DNA of 64,000 nt from an uncultured Veillonellaceae bacterium (GTDB taxonomy: Bacteria; Bacillota; Negativicutes; Veillonellales; Dialisteraceae), in NCBI GenBank assembly GCA_949286115.1, contig CASEBK010000013.1:13677-77676 (forward strand), given 5' to 3'. Below, one piece after another: positions 4,727-47,177 of the stretch (positions are counted from its first letter, which is position 1; every line of letters begins with the position of its first letter). A program made the position numbers and the translations under genes. The notes under the pieces were generated by a model that did no database searches, was not told the origin of the DNA, and saw only the letters and a list, made by a program, of their open reading frames with translations.

Positions 4727-4803
4727 TGGTGGGACTATTGTGATTCGAACACAAGACCTCTTCGATGTCAACGAAGCGCTCTAACCAGCTGAGCTATAAC
4801 CCC
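4727..4803 (-). tRNA. tRNA-Val (anticodon GAC)
   Basis: Minus-strand read GGGGTTATAGCTCAGCTGGTTAGAGCGCTTCGTTGACATCGAAGAGGTCTTGTGTTCGAATCACAATAGTCCCACCA folds as a cloverleaf. Anticodon loop TTGACAT, T-loop TTCGAAT, discriminator A, encoded CCA. Confidence 0.95.
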
Positions 4804-41455: not shown

Positions 41456-42169
41456 TTATTTTCTTCCGCCGAGGTAAGCCGCCATGACGCTGGGGTCGGA
41501 GGCAACGGTCTGGGCCGGGCCTTCGAGAACGATCTTGCCGGTCTCCATGACGTAGGCGTAGTCGGCGATCTGGAGCGCCTTGCGGGCGTTCTGCTCGACG
41601 AGGAGCACCGTGGTGCCCGCCTGATTGATGGCTTTCACCACGTCGAAGATCTGCTGCACCACGAGCGGGGCAAGGCCCATGGACGGTTCGTCCAGAAGCA
41701 TGACCTTCGGGCGGGCCATCATGGCTCGGCCGATGGCGAGCATCTGCTGTTCGCCGCCCGAGAGGGTGCCGCCGTACTGGCTGGCGCGCTCTTTGAGGCG
41801 GGGGAACTGGGCGAAGACCCGCTCCATATCTTCCGCGACGCCCGCTTTGTCCTTGCGCTGGTACGCGCCCATTTCAAGGTTTTCCTGCACGGTCATGGTC
41901 TGAAGGATCTGCCGCCCTTCGGGAACGAGCACCACGCCGGCGCTCACGATCTGGTAGGGCTTTTTCCCCTTGATAGACTGGCCTTCGAAGAGGATGTCCC
42001 CTTCGCTGGGCTTCATCACGCCCATGATGGTCTTCATGGTGGTGGATTTACCCGCGCCGTTCGCGCCGATCAATGTGACGATCTTGCCTTCTTCTACGGA
42101 GAGGCTGATGCCTTTCAGCGCTTTGATGTTGCCGTAGCTCGCTACGACGTTCTTCAGTTCAAGCAGCAT
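41456..42169 (-). CDS. livF: Branched-chain amino acid ABC transporter ATP-binding protein (LivF-type)
   Basis: MLLELKNVVASYG..., Walker A GANGAGKST, LSGGEQQ. ATG 42169 shares one base with the livG TAA stop. The track N-terminal extension is read-through. Confidence 0.9.
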   Translation of the reverse strand: MLLELKNVVASYGNIKALKGISLSVEEGKIVTLIGANGAGKSTTMKTIMGVMKPSEGDILFEGQSIKGKKPYQIVSAGVVLVPEGRQILQTMTVQENLEMGAYQRKDKAGVAEDMERVFAQFPRLKERASQYGGTLSGGEQQMLAIGRAMMARPKVMLLDEPSMGLAPLVVQQIFDVVKAINQAGTTVLLVEQNARKALQIADYAYVMETGKIVLEGPAQTVASDPSVMAAYLGGRK

Positions 42170-42933
42170 TATGCATCCTCCTTCCCAAGATACGCTTCGA
42201 TGACGGCGGGATTGTTCTGCACTTCCGCCGGAGTCCCTTCGGCGAGCATGCGGCCGAAGTTCACTACGATGAGGCGGTTGCACAGGGTCATGACGAGGTT
42301 CATATCGTGTTCGATGAGGATGATGGTGATGTTGAACTGCTCGCGGATACCGCGGATGAGGTCGATCAGGGCGGCGGTCTCGCTGTCGTTCATGCCGGCG
42401 GCCGGTTCGTCCAGCAGGATGATCTGCGGATGCGCCGCCATGGCGCGGGCGATCTCGAGCTTTCTCTGCTTGCCGTAGGGGAGCTCGGTGGCCAGATGGT
42501 CCGCCACATCGTCGAGTCCTACGTACTGGAGGAGCCGATGCGCTTCTTCTACCGCTTCCTCTTCCTCTTTCTTCATGGACGAAGTGTGGAGGAGGCTGCC
42601 CAGAAGGCCCGTCTTCATGCGGGAGTGATGCCCCACGAGGATGTGCTCGAGGACGGTCATGTTCGCGAAGAGGCGGATGTTCTGGAAGGTGCGGGCGATG
42701 CCGCCGTCGATGATCTCAAAGGTCTTCTTGCCGGAAATAGACTGGCCGTTGAAGAGGACGTCCCCGGAGGTGACGGGATAGACGCCGGTGATCATGTTGA
42801 AGATGGTGGTCTTCCCTGCGCCGTTCGGCCCGATGATGCCGAAGATGTCCCCCTGGTTCACCTGGAAGGAGATATCGGAGAGGGCTGTGATGCCGCCGAA
42901 TTTTTTCACGACGTTTTTCAATTCGAGAAGCAC
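42169..42933 (-). CDS. livG: Branched-chain amino acid ABC transporter ATP-binding protein (LivG-type)
   Basis: Walker A GPNGAGKTT and the LivG-type C-terminal block ...NPAVIEAYLG. Confidence 0.9.
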   Translation of the reverse strand: MLLELKNVVKKFGGITALSDISFQVNQGDIFGIIGPNGAGKTTIFNMITGVYPVTSGDVLFNGQSISGKKTFEIIDGGIARTFQNIRLFANMTVLEHILVGHHSRMKTGLLGSLLHTSSMKKEEEEAVEEAHRLLQYVGLDDVADHLATELPYGKQRKLEIARAMAAHPQIILLDEPAAGMNDSETAALIDLIRGIREQFNITIILIEHDMNLVMTLCNRLIVVNFGRMLAEGTPAEVQNNPAVIEAYLGKEDA

Positions 42934-42935
42934 GG

Positions 42936-43883
42936 TCAGTTGCCTCCTTTCGGGGATCTCTTAAAGCGGCGGGCGATGTACTTCACCGCGTCATAGGAAA
43001 GGATGCCGTCCGGACGGAAGCCCATGAGAGCCACCAGCATGAGGCCGTAGATGATGTCGCGGTATTCGGACATGGAGCGGAGAGACTCCGGCACGATGGT
43101 GAGGACGGTCGCCCCCAGGAGCGGCCCCCACATGACGTTGCTGCCGCCGAAGACGGTGTAGAGGAGCATATCTACGACCTTGTGCCACGTGAAGTCCGTG
43201 GGGCTGATGAAGTAGGTGGCGTGCGCGTAGAGAGCGCCGGCCACGCCGGCAAAGAAGGCGCTGAAGAGGAACGCCATCATCTTATAGTAGACCACGTTGA
43301 TGCCCGAGAGGGAGGCGGCGTATTCGTCGGCCTTGATGGCGGCGAACGCCCGGCCCACGCGAGAATGTTCCAGCCGGTACCAGAAGAAGAAGATCACCAC
43401 CACGAGCAGAAAGAGCACGAGACACATGAGGAGCTGGCCCGCCGTCTGAGAATCGAGGGAGAGCGCGTCGATGAGGCCCATGTCGCTGGCGTAGCCCGAA
43501 AGGGAGCTCGCCATGGAGGGGATGCCCGAAAGGCCGAGCGCGCCGTTCGTGATCTTCATGTTGAGGGCGATGACGCGCACCACTTCGCCGAAGCCGAGCG
43601 TCGCGATGGCCAGGTACAGCCCGCGGAGCCGGATGGTGGGCAGCCCGATGATGAGGGCGACCGCCGCGGCCACGAGGCCGCCGCAGAGGATGGACACCGG
43701 CATGGGCACGCCCGCCTTCATGGCCAGGATCGCCGAGGTGTAGGCGCCAAAGCTCATGAAGCCGGCGTTGCCCAGAGAAACGAGCCCCGTGCAGAGCGTC
43801 ATGTAGATGGTGAGCGCCAGGATGACGTTGATGCAGATGAATACGAAGACCTGCAGGAAATAACCGTTGAGTATTGCTTCCAT
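42936..43883 (-). CDS. livM: Branched-chain amino acid ABC transporter permease (LivM-type)
   Basis: 315 aa, multi-TM, with the LG(F/Y)GE(V/I)(V/I)R motif region of LivM/BraE permeases. Confidence 0.85.
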   Translation of the reverse strand: MEAILNGYFLQVFVFICINVILALTIYMTLCTGLVSLGNAGFMSFGAYTSAILAMKAGVPMPVSILCGGLVAAAVALIIGLPTIRLRGLYLAIATLGFGEVVRVIALNMKITNGALGLSGIPSMASSLSGYASDMGLIDALSLDSQTAGQLLMCLVLFLLVVVIFFFWYRLEHSRVGRAFAAIKADEYAASLSGINVVYYKMMAFLFSAFFAGVAGALYAHATYFISPTDFTWHKVVDMLLYTVFGGSNVMWGPLLGATVLTIVPESLRSMSEYRDIIYGLMLVALMGFRPDGILSYDAVKYIARRFKRSPKGGN

Positions 43884-44770
43884 TACGGTCTGCCTCCTTT
43901 CCCAGCCTTAGAGAACAATCCTTCCGGCCGGATGAAAAGGATCAGGATGATGAGCCCGAAGGCCACCGCGTCGCGGTAGGTGGACGCGCCGTAGGCCACG
44001 CTGAAGACTTCGGCGATGCCCAGGATGAAGCCGCCCGCCATGGCGCCTTCCACATTGCCGAGCCCGCCCATGATGAGGACGGCCAGCCCTTTGAAGCCCA
44101 TCGCCGTGCCCATGGTCGGCTCGATGGCGTTGAAGGAGAGGCCGATGAGGACGCCCGCCGCCGCGCCCAGCGCCGAGGCGAGCATCACCGTGAAGGTGAT
44201 GATGAGCCCCGTATTGATGCCGAGGAGCCCCGCCGTTTCAATATTTTCCGACGTGGCGCGTACGGCCTTGCCGATCTTCGTCTTGTTCAGCATGATCGCC
44301 AAGAGCACCATGAGGACCACCGCCGTGCCGAGGCTGACGATCTGGATGCCGGAGATCTTGAAAGCGCCCATATCCATGAGCTCGCTGCTGATGGTGGACG
44401 GGAAGGACCGGGTCTGCGGTCCCCATACCATGAGGGCGACGCTTTCGAGGAAGATCGACACGCCGATGGTGCTGATGAGCGGAGCGAGATGCGTCACTTT
44501 GCGGCGGCGCAGCGGACGCAGCGCGAAGAGCTCCAGCAAATACCCCAGGACCGCCCCGCCGACCATCGCGCCGAGAAGCGCGGGGAAGATCCCCAGGCCC
44601 GCCTCGGTGACGAGGAGGAGACCGATGTACGCGCCCACCATGAAGATGCCGCCGTGCGCCATGTTGACGATGTTCAGCACGCCGAAGACCAGCGTGTAGC
44701 CGATGGCGATGACCGCATAGGCGCTGCCCAGAGTCAAACCGTTGATAAGCTGCTGAGAAAACACGTTCAT
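43883..44770 (-). CDS. livH: Branched-chain amino acid ABC transporter permease (LivH-type)
   Basis: MNVFSQQLINGLTLGSAYAVIAIGYTLVFGVLNIVNMAHGG... Start set at ATG 44770; sequence upstream of it is the T-box leader. Confidence 0.88.
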   Translation of the reverse strand: MNVFSQQLINGLTLGSAYAVIAIGYTLVFGVLNIVNMAHGGIFMVGAYIGLLLVTEAGLGIFPALLGAMVGGAVLGYLLELFALRPLRRRKVTHLAPLISTIGVSIFLESVALMVWGPQTRSFPSTISSELMDMGAFKISGIQIVSLGTAVVLMVLLAIMLNKTKIGKAVRATSENIETAGLLGINTGLIITFTVMLASALGAAAGVLIGLSFNAIEPTMGTAMGFKGLAVLIMGGLGNVEGAMAGGFILGIAEVFSVAYGASTYRDAVAFGLIILILFIRPEGLFSKAGKGGRP

Positions 44771-44862
44771 TTCCCTTTCTGTAAACCAAAGGCACACCCT
44801 CTGCTGCGCGTCTCCCGTGCCCATGGGAGGTGCGCCCGGCCGCGCCGGAAACGATACGGCTG

Positions 44863-44926
44863 AAAAAGCCCCTGCCTCAGCCAATATGACTGTGACAGGG
44901 GCGCTTTCGCGCGGTACCACCCTATT
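44863..44926 (-). promoter_or_regulatory. T-box expression platform 2 of the livH leader (antiterminator/terminator with no Stem I of its own)
   Basis: Minus strand aGGGTGGTACCGCGCgaaaGCGCCCCTG (T-box 44922-44910). The 3' arm overlaps terminator GCCCCTG(44902-44896)...CAGGGGC(44874-44868) plus TTTTT. Confidence 0.8.
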
Positions 44927-44966
44927 TTGTAACTCTCCGGAAACGAGGCTCGGGCGTCCCTGTCAT

Positions 44967-45188
44967 AAAAAAATCCCCTACCTGCATGCGCAGATAGGGG
45001 CGATGAACGCGGTACCACCCTACATTATACTTTGTCTCCGATCCGTAACGAGGACTGACGCCTTTCCCTACTCCATTCAGGAAAGGAGCTCCCGAGTGAT
45101 ATATTTGGAGGACAGAATGCGCCGCCTTGCACCATCCGCCGGCTCTCTGAAGTCATGGACCGTCTTCCTTTTTGCTCTCGATCATCGC
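44967..45188 (-). promoter_or_regulatory. T-box riboswitch, proposed Ile (AUC) specifier, with platform 1 of the livH leader
   Basis: Minus strand GATGA (45186-45182), AGAGAGC (45148-45142), TGGTGCAA (45134-45127) and AUC-A (45100-45097) before the CTCGG-GA closing stem. GGGTGGTACCGCG at 45020-45008. Terminator CCCCTAtCTGC/GCAGgTAGGGG (45000-44975) plus U7. Confidence 0.85.
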
Positions 45189-45240
45189 ATGTGCGCCCGG
45201 TAACGCGGGCCCGCGCCGACAGATACTTCGTTCCCTGCCG

Positions 45241-45337
45241 GAACTCCCAGGTGAGCTTGCGTCCTGCTGCCCGCCAGCTTCCACCAGCCGCTGGCTCTCT
45301 GTGCCGCATGGACAGGGCGCTTTTCCCTGCTCCTCGT
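45241..45337 (-). promoter_or_regulatory. Additional T-box Stem I module, proposed Leu (CUC) specifier, with no platform directly after it
   Basis: Minus strand GAGGA (45335-45331), AGAGAGC (45300-45294), TGGTGGAA (45286-45279) and CUC-A (45255-45252) before CCTGG-GA. Colinear with the other two Stem I modules. Confidence 0.7.
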
Positions 45338-45362
45338 CTTTTTCCTTCGGTTATATCAGTAT

Positions 45363-45390
45363 ATTATAGGGGATTCTGCTGCATTGTCAA
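45363..45390 (-). promoter_or_regulatory. Sigma-A type promoter of the livHMGF leader
   Basis: Minus strand TTGACA (45390-45385), 16 nt spacer, TATAAT (45368-45363). Confidence 0.7.
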
Positions 45391-45461: not shown

Positions 45462-46634
45462 TTATTCGAGCGGCACCCACTGGCCGTCTTTGACCTGGAG
45501 GACGTCGAGCTCCATCTTCGGATCGCGGTTCTCATCGAATTCAAACTGGCCGGTGGCCCCTTCGAAGCCTTTGATCTTCGCCAGGGTGTCGCGGAACTTC
45601 TTCCGGTCCGTGGTGGTGCCGGACTGTTCCACCGCCTGATGGAGCGTGTACATCGCGTCGTAAGCCTGAGCGGAGAACTGATCCGGCTCGTGGCCATACT
45701 TCTCTTTGAATGCCTTGCGGAACGCCTGGGCCTTTTCGGTCTGGCGCTCCGGATTCCACGGGGTGGCGACGAGCGTGCCGTCCGCAGCGGCTCCGGCCTG
45801 CTTGATGTACTCGGGGCTGTTGAAGCCGTTGTTGCCGATGATCATCTGGGTCATGCCCATGTCGCGGGCCTTCTTGGCGATGAGCGCCCCTTCCTGATAG
45901 AGGCTGGCCACGCAGATGATGTCAGGATTGGCCGCCTGGATCTTCGTGAGCTGAGCGGAGAAGTCCGTGTCCTTCTCGGCGAAAGTCTCCGTGGCTACCA
46001 CGTCGATGCCCATCTCCTTGAAGAGCTCCTGATAGATGCCGTTCTCGCCCACCATCTGATCGTTGTTGTTGCAGTAGAGGATGGCCGCCGTCTTGAAGCC
46101 CAGCTTGTCGTGCGCCTTCTTCACCGTCTGCGGGATGGCCATCTTGCCGGGGATGGCGTTTCTGAAGATGTAGTCGCCGATGTCGGTGATGCCCGGCGCG
46201 GTGGTGCCCGTGCCGAAAGCGACGACGCCGGACTGCTGCGCGATAGGACCGGCGGCGAACATCTCGCCGGAGAAGGTCGGCCCTTCGATGGCAAGGACCT
46301 TATCCTGCTCGATGAGCTTCTTCATCGCGTTGATCGCCTCGGTCTTATTGCCCTTCGTGTCGTAGAAAGCGATGTCGAGCTTCACCTTCGTATTCGGATC
46401 CGCGTTGATCTCTTCGACCGCCAGATCCACCCCTTCCTTCATGGCGATGCCGTAAGCCGCCCCAGGACCGGAGGTCGCTTCGAGCACGCCGATCTTCGCC
46501 GTGCCGGACGATGCGCCGCCTGCGCTGCCGCTCGATTTTTCTCCGCCGCCGCAGCCTGCGAAAGCACCCGCGATCATCAGAGCCGCTCCTGCGGCCGCCA
46601 GCCGTTTCATCCATTTCTTGTCCATCATGGTCAT
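45462..46634 (-). CDS. livJ: ABC transporter substrate-binding lipoprotein, branched-chain amino acid (LivJ/LivK) family
   Basis: Signal peptide with lipobox AGAFAGC, then a periplasmic-binding-protein type I fold sequence (KIGVLEATSGPGAAYG...). Start is ATG 46634 or 46628; upstream track residues belong to the leader. Confidence 0.85.
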   Translation of the reverse strand: MTMMDKKWMKRLAAAGAALMIAGAFAGCGGGEKSSGSAGGASSGTAKIGVLEATSGPGAAYGIAMKEGVDLAVEEINADPNTKVKLDIAFYDTKGNKTEAINAMKKLIEQDKVLAIEGPTFSGEMFAAGPIAQQSGVVAFGTGTTAPGITDIGDYIFRNAIPGKMAIPQTVKKAHDKLGFKTAAILYCNNNDQMVGENGIYQELFKEMGIDVVATETFAEKDTDFSAQLTKIQAANPDIICVASLYQEGALIAKKARDMGMTQMIIGNNGFNSPEYIKQAGAAADGTLVATPWNPERQTEKAQAFRKAFKEKYGHEPDQFSAQAYDAMYTLHQAVEQSGTTTDRKKFRDTLAKIKGFEGATGQFEFDENRDPKMELDVLQVKDGQWVPLE

Positions 46635-46687
46635 TGCCCCCTCTTTGGAAAATCGGTGTATGTTCTCTTTTTCAATACGGCCTTCCC

Positions 46688-46760
46688 AAAAGAAAAAGCC
46701 CCTGTCTCCGGCTGCATGCCTTTCCGGAGACAGGGGCGCTTCGCGCGGTACCACCCTGCT
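46688..46760 (-). promoter_or_regulatory. T-box expression platform 2 of the livJ leader (no Stem I of its own)
   Basis: Minus strand aGGGTGGTACCGCGCgaaGCGCCCCTG (T-box 46756-46744). 14-bp terminator GCCCCTGTCTCCGG(46737-46724)/CCGGAGACAGGGGC(46711-46698) plus TTTTT. Confidence 0.8.
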
Positions 46761-46792
46761 TTTTGCTCTGCCTGCAAGCTCCTGAAGGAAGA

Positions 46793-47016
46793 TACACAAA
46801 GACCCCTATCTCATTTCGAGATAGGGGCGTCATTCCGCGGTACCACCCTACATTATACTTATAGGTGTGTCCATAACGAGGACCAGACGTTCCTTCCTAC
46901 TTTGTTCGGAAGAAATACTCGCGAGGGACATATCGCACTTCAGTATGCATCAGCTTGCACCATCCGCTGACTCTCTGCAGTCATCGCTGAAATACTCGGG
47001 AAATCTCGTTCATCGT
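46793..47016 (-). promoter_or_regulatory. T-box riboswitch, proposed Val (GUC) specifier, with platform 1 of the livJ leader
   Basis: Minus strand GATGA (47014-47010), AGAGAGT (46976-46970), TGGTGCAA (46962-46955) and GUC (46929-46927) before CTCGC-GA. GGGTGGTACCGCG at 46848-46836. Terminator CCCCTATCTC/GAGATAGGGG (46828-46803) followed by TCTTTGTGT. Confidence 0.85.
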
Positions 47017-47038
47017 ATGTGCTGTATTGAATGGTTGA

Positions 47039-47067
47039 ATTATACGGCACGCGCCGGAGGATGTCAA
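47039..47067 (-). promoter_or_regulatory. Sigma-A type promoter of the livJ leader
   Basis: Minus strand TTGACA (47067-47062), 17 nt spacer, TATAAT (47044-47039). Confidence 0.75.
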
Positions 47068-47177
47068 GCAAAATTTGCGCAAAAAAGATACATAGATGCG
47101 CCCGGCGCAAGTTTCGTCAAGATTTGGTAAAATAAAAGGAGAAAGACGCTCTATATCCATGGAAAGGAGGGACGGCC

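Follow-up and report, generated by a model that had tools for sequence, protein, structure and literature searches.

T-boxes are the standard example of one RNA reading another, with a core mechanism now understood in atomic detail. The leader of a livJ-like gene in an uncultured Veillonellaceae bacterium raises the question of what a T-box does with a second antiterminator/terminator platform when it has a single Stem I. This leader, called leader 1 below, is encoded on the minus strand of the 64,000-nucleotide (nt) stretch of contig CASEBK010000013.1 analysed here (the window). Both of its platforms are intact, are conserved in relatives and are under selection for both of their alternative folds. 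We favor, with moderate confidence, the reading that leader 1 is a transcriptional tRNA-Val T-box whose discriminator module has been tandemly duplicated, forming serial checkpoints that would re-test the charge of a tRNA parked on Stem I.

Structure of the livJ leader

The initial annotation had placed a consensus promoter, the elements of one Stem I, a GUC specifier and two platforms upstream of livJ. A script located all of these motifs at the same positions of the minus strand, and they agree base for base. Platform 1 contains the T-box core GGGTGGTACCGCG (46848-46836). Its antiterminator (46823..46849) is composed of helix A1 (AGGG/CCCU), the 7-nt bulge UGGUACC and helix A2 (GCG/CGC), and has a folding energy of -7.1 kcal/mol. 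Terminator 1, identified by a terminator scan, has the arms GCCCCTATCTC/GAGATAGGGGT (stem 46828-46802, -21.6 kcal/mol) followed by a weak U-tract, CUUUGUGU (46801-46794). Platform 2 is situated 92 nt further along the transcript. Its core (46756-46744) is identical to core 1, and its antiterminator (46732..46757) has the same AGGG/CCCU helix and UGGUACC bulge with a longer helix A2, GCGC/GCGC (-7.7 kcal/mol). Terminator 2 occupies 46688..46737, including a 14-bp stem (46737-46698, -35.9 kcal/mol) and the U-run UUUUUCUUUU (46697-46688). The window contains four copies of the 12-mer GGTGGNACCRCG, where 0.06 would be expected.

In both platforms the antiterminator overlaps, at its 3' arm, an intrinsic terminator with which it is mutually exclusive. 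The antiterminators are 14-28 kcal/mol weaker than their own terminators, showing that termination is the default fold at each checkpoint. The T-box core GUGGUACCGC is self-complementary, a property general to T-box cores, and in the window 46847-46838 can pair with 46755-46746. This pairing of core 1 with core 2 amounts to -19.2 kcal/mol and is present in both the minimum-free-energy and the consensus folds. The columns involved are invariant and hence uninformative for covariation.

The spacer between the platforms (46758..46793) lacks Stem I motifs. The one part of it that is conserved in relatives is a GAGYRA...A-rich stretch immediately before platform 2, which reads GCAGAGCAAAAAGC in the window. 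No AGAGAG, GGTG, AG bulge, distal loop or K-turn is found in the 45-nt segment separating the platforms, and this segment folds no better than shuffled sequence (z = +0.88). A second Stem I or specifier stem in 46758-46801 was rejected on the basis of the absent motifs, this fold score and the lack of conservation. The Rfam T-box model RF00230, run on 46600-47150 with permissive filters, gives a single full-length match (46820-47022, model positions 1-219, 81.5 bits, E = 3.8e-18). When 46680-46800 is given to the model alone, a 5'-truncated match is obtained (46729-46800, model positions 146-219, 18.9 bits, E = 0.011). One full and one 3'-only match is what the initial annotation had anticipated, and its description of one Val-type Stem I with a second platform lacking a Stem I of its own thus holds.

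The promoter (47039..47067) consists of TTGACA (47067-47062), a 17-nt spacer and TATAAT (47044-47039). It agrees with the consensus at 12 of 12 positions, compared with 0.5 promoter-like sites expected in shuffled sequences, and its end is 22 nt from Stem I. Stem I (46918..47017) is delineated by the RF00230 alignment, is in register with 36 other Stem I elements and shows compensatory changes in seven orthologous leaders. It includes the K-turn GAUGA (47014-47010), the AG bulge AGAGAG (46976-46971), the distal loop TGGTGCAA in the DNA, or UGGUGCAA (46962-46955), and GUC (46929-46927), a Val codon that RF00230 places in its specifier column. The specifier columns were brought into register by a MAFFT alignment of 37 Stem I elements. 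Directly after the specifier, at 46926, there is a C where T-boxes normally have a purine; the same C is found in loci L009, L044, L137, L147 and L149.

Stem II (46915-46890) contains the GAA...AGUA S-turn and is supported by the RF00230 alignment and by covariation. It is followed by Stem IIA/B with the F-box CGUUAUGG (46889-46871), assigned from the same alignment, and by a purine- and A-rich linker ending in AAGUAUAAUGU (46850..46870). No convincing Stem III hairpin precedes either platform in the lineage of the window upon folding, and the bases aligned to the Stem III columns of RF00230 do not pair with each other.

Conservation of the two platforms

Seventeen liv-type platform arrays were aligned, and the conservation and pairing of the platforms were counted. 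Neither the two T-box cores nor the two CGCCCCU arms vary. Pairing is complete (100%) in each antiterminator, compared with 49-68% when the partners are slid relative to each other. One helix A2 pair of antiterminator 2 is CG in 10 leaders, GU in 5, GC in 1 and UA in 1. Pairing in the terminators reaches 94.5%, both partners having changed in 10 of the pairs (four in terminator 1 and six in terminator 2), and none of 500 shuffles is as good. Invariant cores, full pairing and compensatory changes in the terminators together show that selection acts on both folds of platform 2, which is thus no relic, and the covariation among related leaders that the initial annotation had proposed to look for is present in both platforms.

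The linkers are also alike. The purine-rich RAGUAUAAUGUA 5' of platform 1, in which AGUA.AAU..A is invariant in the 17 leaders, is mirrored by the GAGYRA...A-rich stretch 5' of platform 2. Outside the core, platform units 1 and 2 of the liv leaders are 56-66% identical, indicating that the duplication is old and has been maintained.

Both platforms are present in every livJ-type leader found, namely those of the window, L009, L044 and eight metagenome loci. The full layout is shared by the seven orthologous livJ leaders, which show compensatory changes in Stem I as well as in Stem II. Their specifier is GUC followed by C in six and AUC followed by A in one. The latter, at L130 (1172-1558), has switched to Ile with its layout of one Stem I and two platforms unchanged. 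Terminator 2 is more stable than terminator 1 across the lineage (-28 to -36 versus -18 to -25 kcal/mol).

RNAalifold also predicts a long-range helix, ACGGCC/GGCCGU, between the start of Stem IIA (46884-46889) and the sequence 3' of terminator 2 (about 46655-46662). This helix (columns 147-152/395-400 of alignment A4) was rejected, being weak, with little covariation, and partly broken in the window.

The liv operon and its second leader

The genes 3' of leader 1 encode a complete branched-chain amino acid ABC transporter, livJ and livHMGF, all on the minus strand. The livJ-like binding protein gene (45462..46634, start ATG at 46634) matches Pfam Peripla_BP_6 (E = 8.6e-64). The livH (ATG at 44770), livM, livG and livF genes (41456..44770), which code for the permeases and ATPases, match BPD_transp_2 in two genes and ABC_tran plus BCA_ABC_TP_C in the other two. 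The Val specifier of leader 1 agrees with this transporter, and the cognate tRNA-Val(GAC) is itself encoded in the window (4727..4803, minus strand). Its anticodon pairs with GUC, and its A-CCA 3' end is complementary to the UGGU of both leader 1 platforms.

A second T-box leader (leader 2), missed by the initial annotation, is situated in the gap between livJ and livH (44860-45390, minus strand), 1.3 kb downstream of leader 1 in the same operon. It has multiple platforms and two Stem I elements. Its promoter (45363..45390) is TTGACA, a 16-nt spacer and TATAAT, a 12/12 match. The first unit, a (45200..45337), is a partial RF00230 match (model positions 7-103, 32.2 bits, E = 2.5e-5) with covariation in nine genomes. 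It has the specifier CUC (Leu, 45255-45253), Stem II-a (45241-45216) and Stem IIA/B with F-box (45215-45200), and no discriminator of its own. The second unit, b (45043..45194), likewise shows covariation and belongs to a full RF00230 match (44894-45194, 88.8 bits); it has the specifier AUC (Ile, 45100-45098), Stem II-b (45088-45061) and Stem IIA/B with F-box (45060-45043). In the nine genomes the two Stem I elements of leader 2 have compensatory changes in 25 of 63 predicted pairs, and both CUC and AUC are conserved. All three branched-chain tRNAs are therefore specified across the operon, Val in leader 1, and Leu and Ile in leader 2.

The two platforms of leader 2 are 98 nt apart, with T-box cores at 45019-45008 and 44921-44910. 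Platform 1 (44965..45021) comprises an antiterminator (45021-44996, -8.3 kcal/mol), a terminator (45000-44975, -24.6 kcal/mol) and a U-run (44974-44965). Platform 2 (44860..44923) comprises an antiterminator (44923-44897, -9.7 kcal/mol), a terminator (44902-44868, -34.0 kcal/mol) and a U-run. The RF00230 alignment skips platform 1 as an 81-nt insertion and aligns platform 2. The second terminator is thus the stronger one in both leaders of the window. A candidate long-range helix in leader 2 between CCGGGCG, after F-box a, and CGCCCG of the spacer, which would have closed the inner unit, was discarded; its bases belong to the IIA/B pseudoknot region, and it is not kept in L049 and L044.

Uncultured Veillonellaceae/Dialister genomes (L049, L044 and L009) have leaders that share 82-91% identity with those of the window, in keeping with its origin from a Veillonellaceae-type organism. 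In L009 and L044 both leaders are present and in the same order as in the window.

Stem I and platform numbers in other T-boxes

One genome per species was scanned for two T-box cores 60-90 nt apart, which yielded at least 119 loci. About 45 of the 119 listed loci are coding repeats with periods of 15-44 nt, in Actinomycetota, Myxococcota and other groups, and were discarded. At least about 70 T-box leaders have multiple platforms, each core being followed by its own hairpin and T-run. Among the leaders listed, which are spread across phyla, the specifiers are Phe, Leu, Ile, Val, Trp, Ser and Tyr. The Phe leaders are upstream of an NSS transporter or DAHP synthase, the Leu leaders upstream of ilvB or ilvD, the Trp leaders upstream of trpE, the Ser leaders upstream of a serC-like aminotransferase, the Tyr leaders upstream of DAHP synthase and the Ile leaders upstream of ileS; Val, Leu or Ile leaders are also found upstream of liv genes.

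Many of the listed matches have one Stem I and two platforms. One Stem I with three platforms occurs in the Bacillus cereus group, Paenibacillus alvei, a Lysinibacillus and a Veillonellaceae liv leader, and one Stem I with four platforms in Lysinibacillus. Two Stem I elements with two platforms (Leu plus Ile) occur in Dialister/Veillonellaceae. The Phe (UUC) leaders of NSS transporters in the B. cereus group, Lysinibacillus and Paenibacillus have two to four units of about 88 nt that are 84-97% identical, behind one Stem I. Among these leaders, three platforms were counted at L016, L017, L019, L039, L042, L061, L065, L067, L103, L110 and L112, and four at L026, L036, L073 and L118. Platform number differs even between close relatives, as in a tandem repeat, and the pattern resembles a tandem duplication that is either recent or concerted. 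Lineages with a clear Stem III carry one before each platform (L031, L087 and L012), showing that the repeated unit in these leaders is the whole discriminator domain.

Metagenomes were scanned for pairs of Stem I distal regions with too little room between them for a discriminator. This gave 90 loci, nearly all of them Leu plus Ile leaders from the human gut. About 55 have two platforms and about 23 have one. At L209 (1040-1500), inspection by eye shows two Stem I elements and one intact platform (Rfam score 92 bits). In L209 and about 22 similar loci (for example L126, L144 and L145), the sequence GAGTGA...TAAATAC is possibly a remnant of the platform 2 linker, the T-box core being gone. In the Leu plus Ile leader L188 the platforms are at +257 and +358 from the second Stem I, compared with about +127 and +227 in all its relatives, a shift of about 130 nt that suggests an insertion. 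In L002 (Alicyclobacillus fastidiosus, minus strand, about 600-1170), an apparently complete Tyr T-box is followed by a second Tyr Stem I and two platforms (I-D-I-D-D); this array precedes a DAHP synthase gene.

The Stem I number and the platform number therefore vary independently. Ratios of 1:2, 1:3, 1:4, 2:2 and 2:1 all exist, which argues against a fixed pairing of each platform with a Stem I of its own. For leader 2, a nested one-to-one arrangement was considered, in which platform 1 would belong to the inner Stem I (Ile) and platform 2 to the outer one (Leu). This idea is weakened by the relatives having two Stem I elements and one platform and by the leaders having one Stem I and two to four platforms.

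Which tRNA is read at platform 2

The variable base N of the UGGN bulge pairs with the discriminator base of the tRNA, which is A73 in the Phe, Leu, Ile, Val and Tyr tRNAs. N is U in every platform of the listed Phe, Leu, Ile, Val and Tyr leaders with one exception, and is C in both platforms of all three listed Trp leaders, matching G73. The exception is the Phe leader L012 (Alicyclobacillaceae), which has C and then U. A His (CAC) leader, L092 (Companilactobacillus zhongbaensis), has U and A and is also off expectation. The pattern thus mostly fits a reading in which both platforms would interrogate the tRNA specified by Stem I. The Ser (UCC) leaders of serC-like genes, mostly from Phascolarctobacterium, are L014, L037, L053, L058, L066, L069, L090, L119, L086 and L091; the Stem I region of L086 is masked.

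Single-molecule studies of glyQS T-boxes found that tRNA binds to Stem I alone with a rate of about 0.8e6 per M per s and a lifetime of about 4.5 s, that the tRNA 3' end then docks at about 10 per s, and that RNA polymerase travels at 40-50 nt/s (PMC5951919, PMC6197855). Capture proceeds via Stem I, and no binding of tRNA by an isolated antiterminator was seen (PMC5951919). At this speed the polymerase covers the 92-104 nt from one checkpoint to the next in about 2 s. An anchored tRNA stays bound for longer than that, so that its re-use is feasible. According to a 2020 review (PMC7583486), purines flanking Stem III dock on the tRNA-T-box heteroduplex, and the purine-rich linker before both platforms of leader 1 would be consistent with such a contact. 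The initial annotation had offered two mechanisms, a second reading of the anchored tRNA and codon-independent sensing of an uncharged NCCA end with discriminator A. The UGGN pattern and the capture experiments (PMC5951919) fit the former better.

Proposed mechanism and alternatives

The duplicated module comprises a purine-rich linker, an antiterminator with the UGGU bulge, the overlapping terminator and a U-run. RNA polymerase would reach livJ only if the uncharged A-CCA end holds antiterminator 1 and then, about 2 s later, antiterminator 2. As platform 2 has no Stem I, the 3' end read there would most likely come from the tRNA that is then on the single Stem I. It might be the original tRNA, passed on when terminator 1 has folded behind the polymerase, or a new one that has taken its place. 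Two rounds of sampling would multiply the termination probabilities, resulting in lower basal expression and a sharper response to valine starvation, and the stronger terminator 2 would catch transcripts that leak through the weaker terminator 1. The sequence comparisons show the anatomy, its conservation and the selection on both folds of each platform, whereas the reliance of platform 2 on tRNA, the hand-over and the gain in regulation are inferred.

Several points weigh against this reading. One lineage of the sister Leu plus Ile leader no longer has platform 2, which is therefore not indispensable. Of the nine Ser leaders with a specifier called or read by eye, all have the C expected for G73 in platform 1, but eight have U in platform 2, which allows a wobble pair only; the ninth, L091, has C. 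The identity of UGGN between platforms could reflect descent, not selection. The pairing of core 1 with core 2, at -19.2 kcal/mol against -7 to -10 kcal/mol for an antiterminator, would oppose antiterminator 2. The tRNA-antiterminator complex is very long-lived in vitro (PMC5951919, PMC6197855), so that the 3' end may leave platform 1 too late for hand-over. Lastly, no experimental study of partially tandem T-boxes, the class to which leader 1 belongs (see below), was found in the literature, where searches aimed at duplicated, consecutive or tandem terminators in T-boxes gave nothing relevant, and the 2020 review calls their mode of action unknown (PMC7583486).

Some of these observations would suit a platform 2 that acts as an autonomous, codon-independent sensor of any uncharged tRNA with A73, or with G73 by wobble. 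Expression would then need both valine starvation, at platform 1, and a general rise of uncharged tRNA, at platform 2. We consider this unlikely. Such a sensor would account for the absence of Stem I from platform 2 and for the independent variation of Stem I and platform counts, and the U in platform 2 of the Ser leaders would widen its range of tRNAs. Antiterminator model RNAs are also known to bind acceptor-end mimics at micromolar concentrations in vitro. However, the three Trp leaders retain C in both platforms, an unanchored 4-bp contact within about 1-2 s of transcription is kinetically demanding, and in the single-molecule work tRNA was captured through Stem I, with no binding to an isolated antiterminator seen (PMC5951919). 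A different role, which appears quite unlikely, is that of a fail-safe relay that copies the decision of platform 1 and suppresses leakage without independent sensing of tRNA. Where terminator 1 folds for want of uncharged tRNA and the polymerase nevertheless leaks through, the freed core 1 would pair with core 2, blocking antiterminator 2 and ensuring termination at the strong terminator 2. A tRNA-held antiterminator 1 would instead leave core 2 free for antiterminator 2. The core 1:core 2 pairing in the minimum-free-energy and consensus folds agrees with this, as do the consistently stronger terminator 2 of the lineage and the poor U-tract of terminator 1 in the window. Nevertheless, the self-complementarity is intrinsic to all T-box cores and ends at the invariant core, with no sign of selection. 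Moreover, terminator 2 (-35.9 kcal/mol, with an 8-nt toehold) should still outcompete antiterminator 2 (-7.7 kcal/mol) when no ligand is bound, so that read-through would continue to need a ligand.

It is highly improbable that platform 2 is a decaying or neutral relic, either of a tandem duplication or of a full second T-box that has lost its Stem I, serving just as an extra terminator. Platform copy number is indeed labile, ranging from two to four between close relatives with Phe units that are 84-97% identical, and the loss of platform 2 in the Leu/Ile lineage points the same way. The liv units, however, are old (56-66% identity) and still retain invariant cores, a fully paired antiterminator 2 and compensatory changes in terminator 2; moreover, if its antiterminator did not work, such a terminator would shut the operon off.

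Returning to the serial-checkpoint reading, a tentative extension of it is that Stem I, for capture, and the discriminator, for the charge check and termination, are independently countable modules, and that a parked tRNA may be read processively by successive discriminators emerging from the polymerase. The Leu and Ile tRNAs, parked next to each other on the livH leader, would then share two discriminators as a two-input gate on a single transcript, and with the Val leader one operon would integrate all three branched-chain tRNAs. Such processive reading would constitute a multi-sample riboswitch resembling kinetic proofreading.

Relation to known riboswitches

T-boxes with duplicated terminator-antiterminator elements were reportedly described by Vitreschak et al. 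(2008, RNA 14:717), a class that leader 1 would fit. Leader 1 has the sequence and structural elements of a T-box: K-turn, specifier loop, AG bulge, distal loop, Stem II, IIA/B with F-box, core, antiterminator and terminator. Compared with the canonical single T-box of RF00230, it has all the defining elements and differs by an apparently vestigial Stem III, the C after the specifier and the duplicated discriminator. The scores of leader 1 (81.5 bits) and leader 2 (88.8 bits) are both below the RF00230 gathering score of 93, and a run of Rfam over the whole window at the gathering threshold reports three tRNAs only and no T-box. The shortfall of leader 1 is due to the lack of a convincing Stem III and to short linkers, and the threshold is a matter of curation, not a biological criterion. 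Default Rfam annotation consequently misses both leaders, and T-box leaders of such a layout are probably under-annotated.

'Partially tandem' T-boxes are acknowledged in the 2020 review (PMC7583486), in a one-line mention. Leader 1 shares with them one specifier hairpin, more than one core, each with antiterminator and terminator, and an association with genes of amino-acid transport or biosynthesis; as far as that mention goes, there is no essential difference. With one Stem I and two cores, each having its antiterminator, terminator and U-run, it is a further example of a partially tandem T-box, in a Veillonellaceae-type liv operon, and is not new in kind. The novelty implied by the initial annotation was thus overstated, given this mention and the 70 or more comparable leaders, approximately, found here. 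Leader 1 is not a fully tandem T-box, as it has no second Stem I between the platforms. Fully tandem T-boxes (thrS/thrZ, trp and ilv-leu; PMC12452182) resemble leader 1 in having serial terminators, each antiterminated by uncharged tRNA, from which a sharper, pseudo-cooperative response is expected. Unlike leader 1, whose platforms 92 nt apart share one Stem I, they repeat both Stem I and the discriminator, so that each has a capture arm of its own.

Taxonomies of tandem riboswitches (Sherlock et al. 2022, PMC9481103; PMC12452182) recognize two complete riboswitches, or two aptamers with one platform as in the glycine type; neither has a category for one sensor with several expression platforms. 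The leaders of the L209 type, with two Stem I elements and one platform, resemble the glycine layout of two sensors and one platform. Like tandem metabolite riboswitches, leader 1 re-uses sensor and platform parts as modules, which would reshape the dose-response. The ligand of a T-box, in contrast to theirs, is a macromolecule that could stay anchored between checkpoints.

The operon and its relatives provide a compact natural test set, in which the same discriminator pair is found behind one Stem I (Val or Ile) or two (Leu plus Ile), with a sister lineage that lacks platform 2 and with Phe leaders that have two, three or four near-identical platforms. The most interesting outcome of the analysis is leader 2, in which two platforms follow two Stem I elements, along with the independent variation of Stem I and platform numbers. 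If an anchored tRNA is indeed handed from one platform to the next, these leaders would represent a new riboswitch route to stringency without duplication of the sensor.

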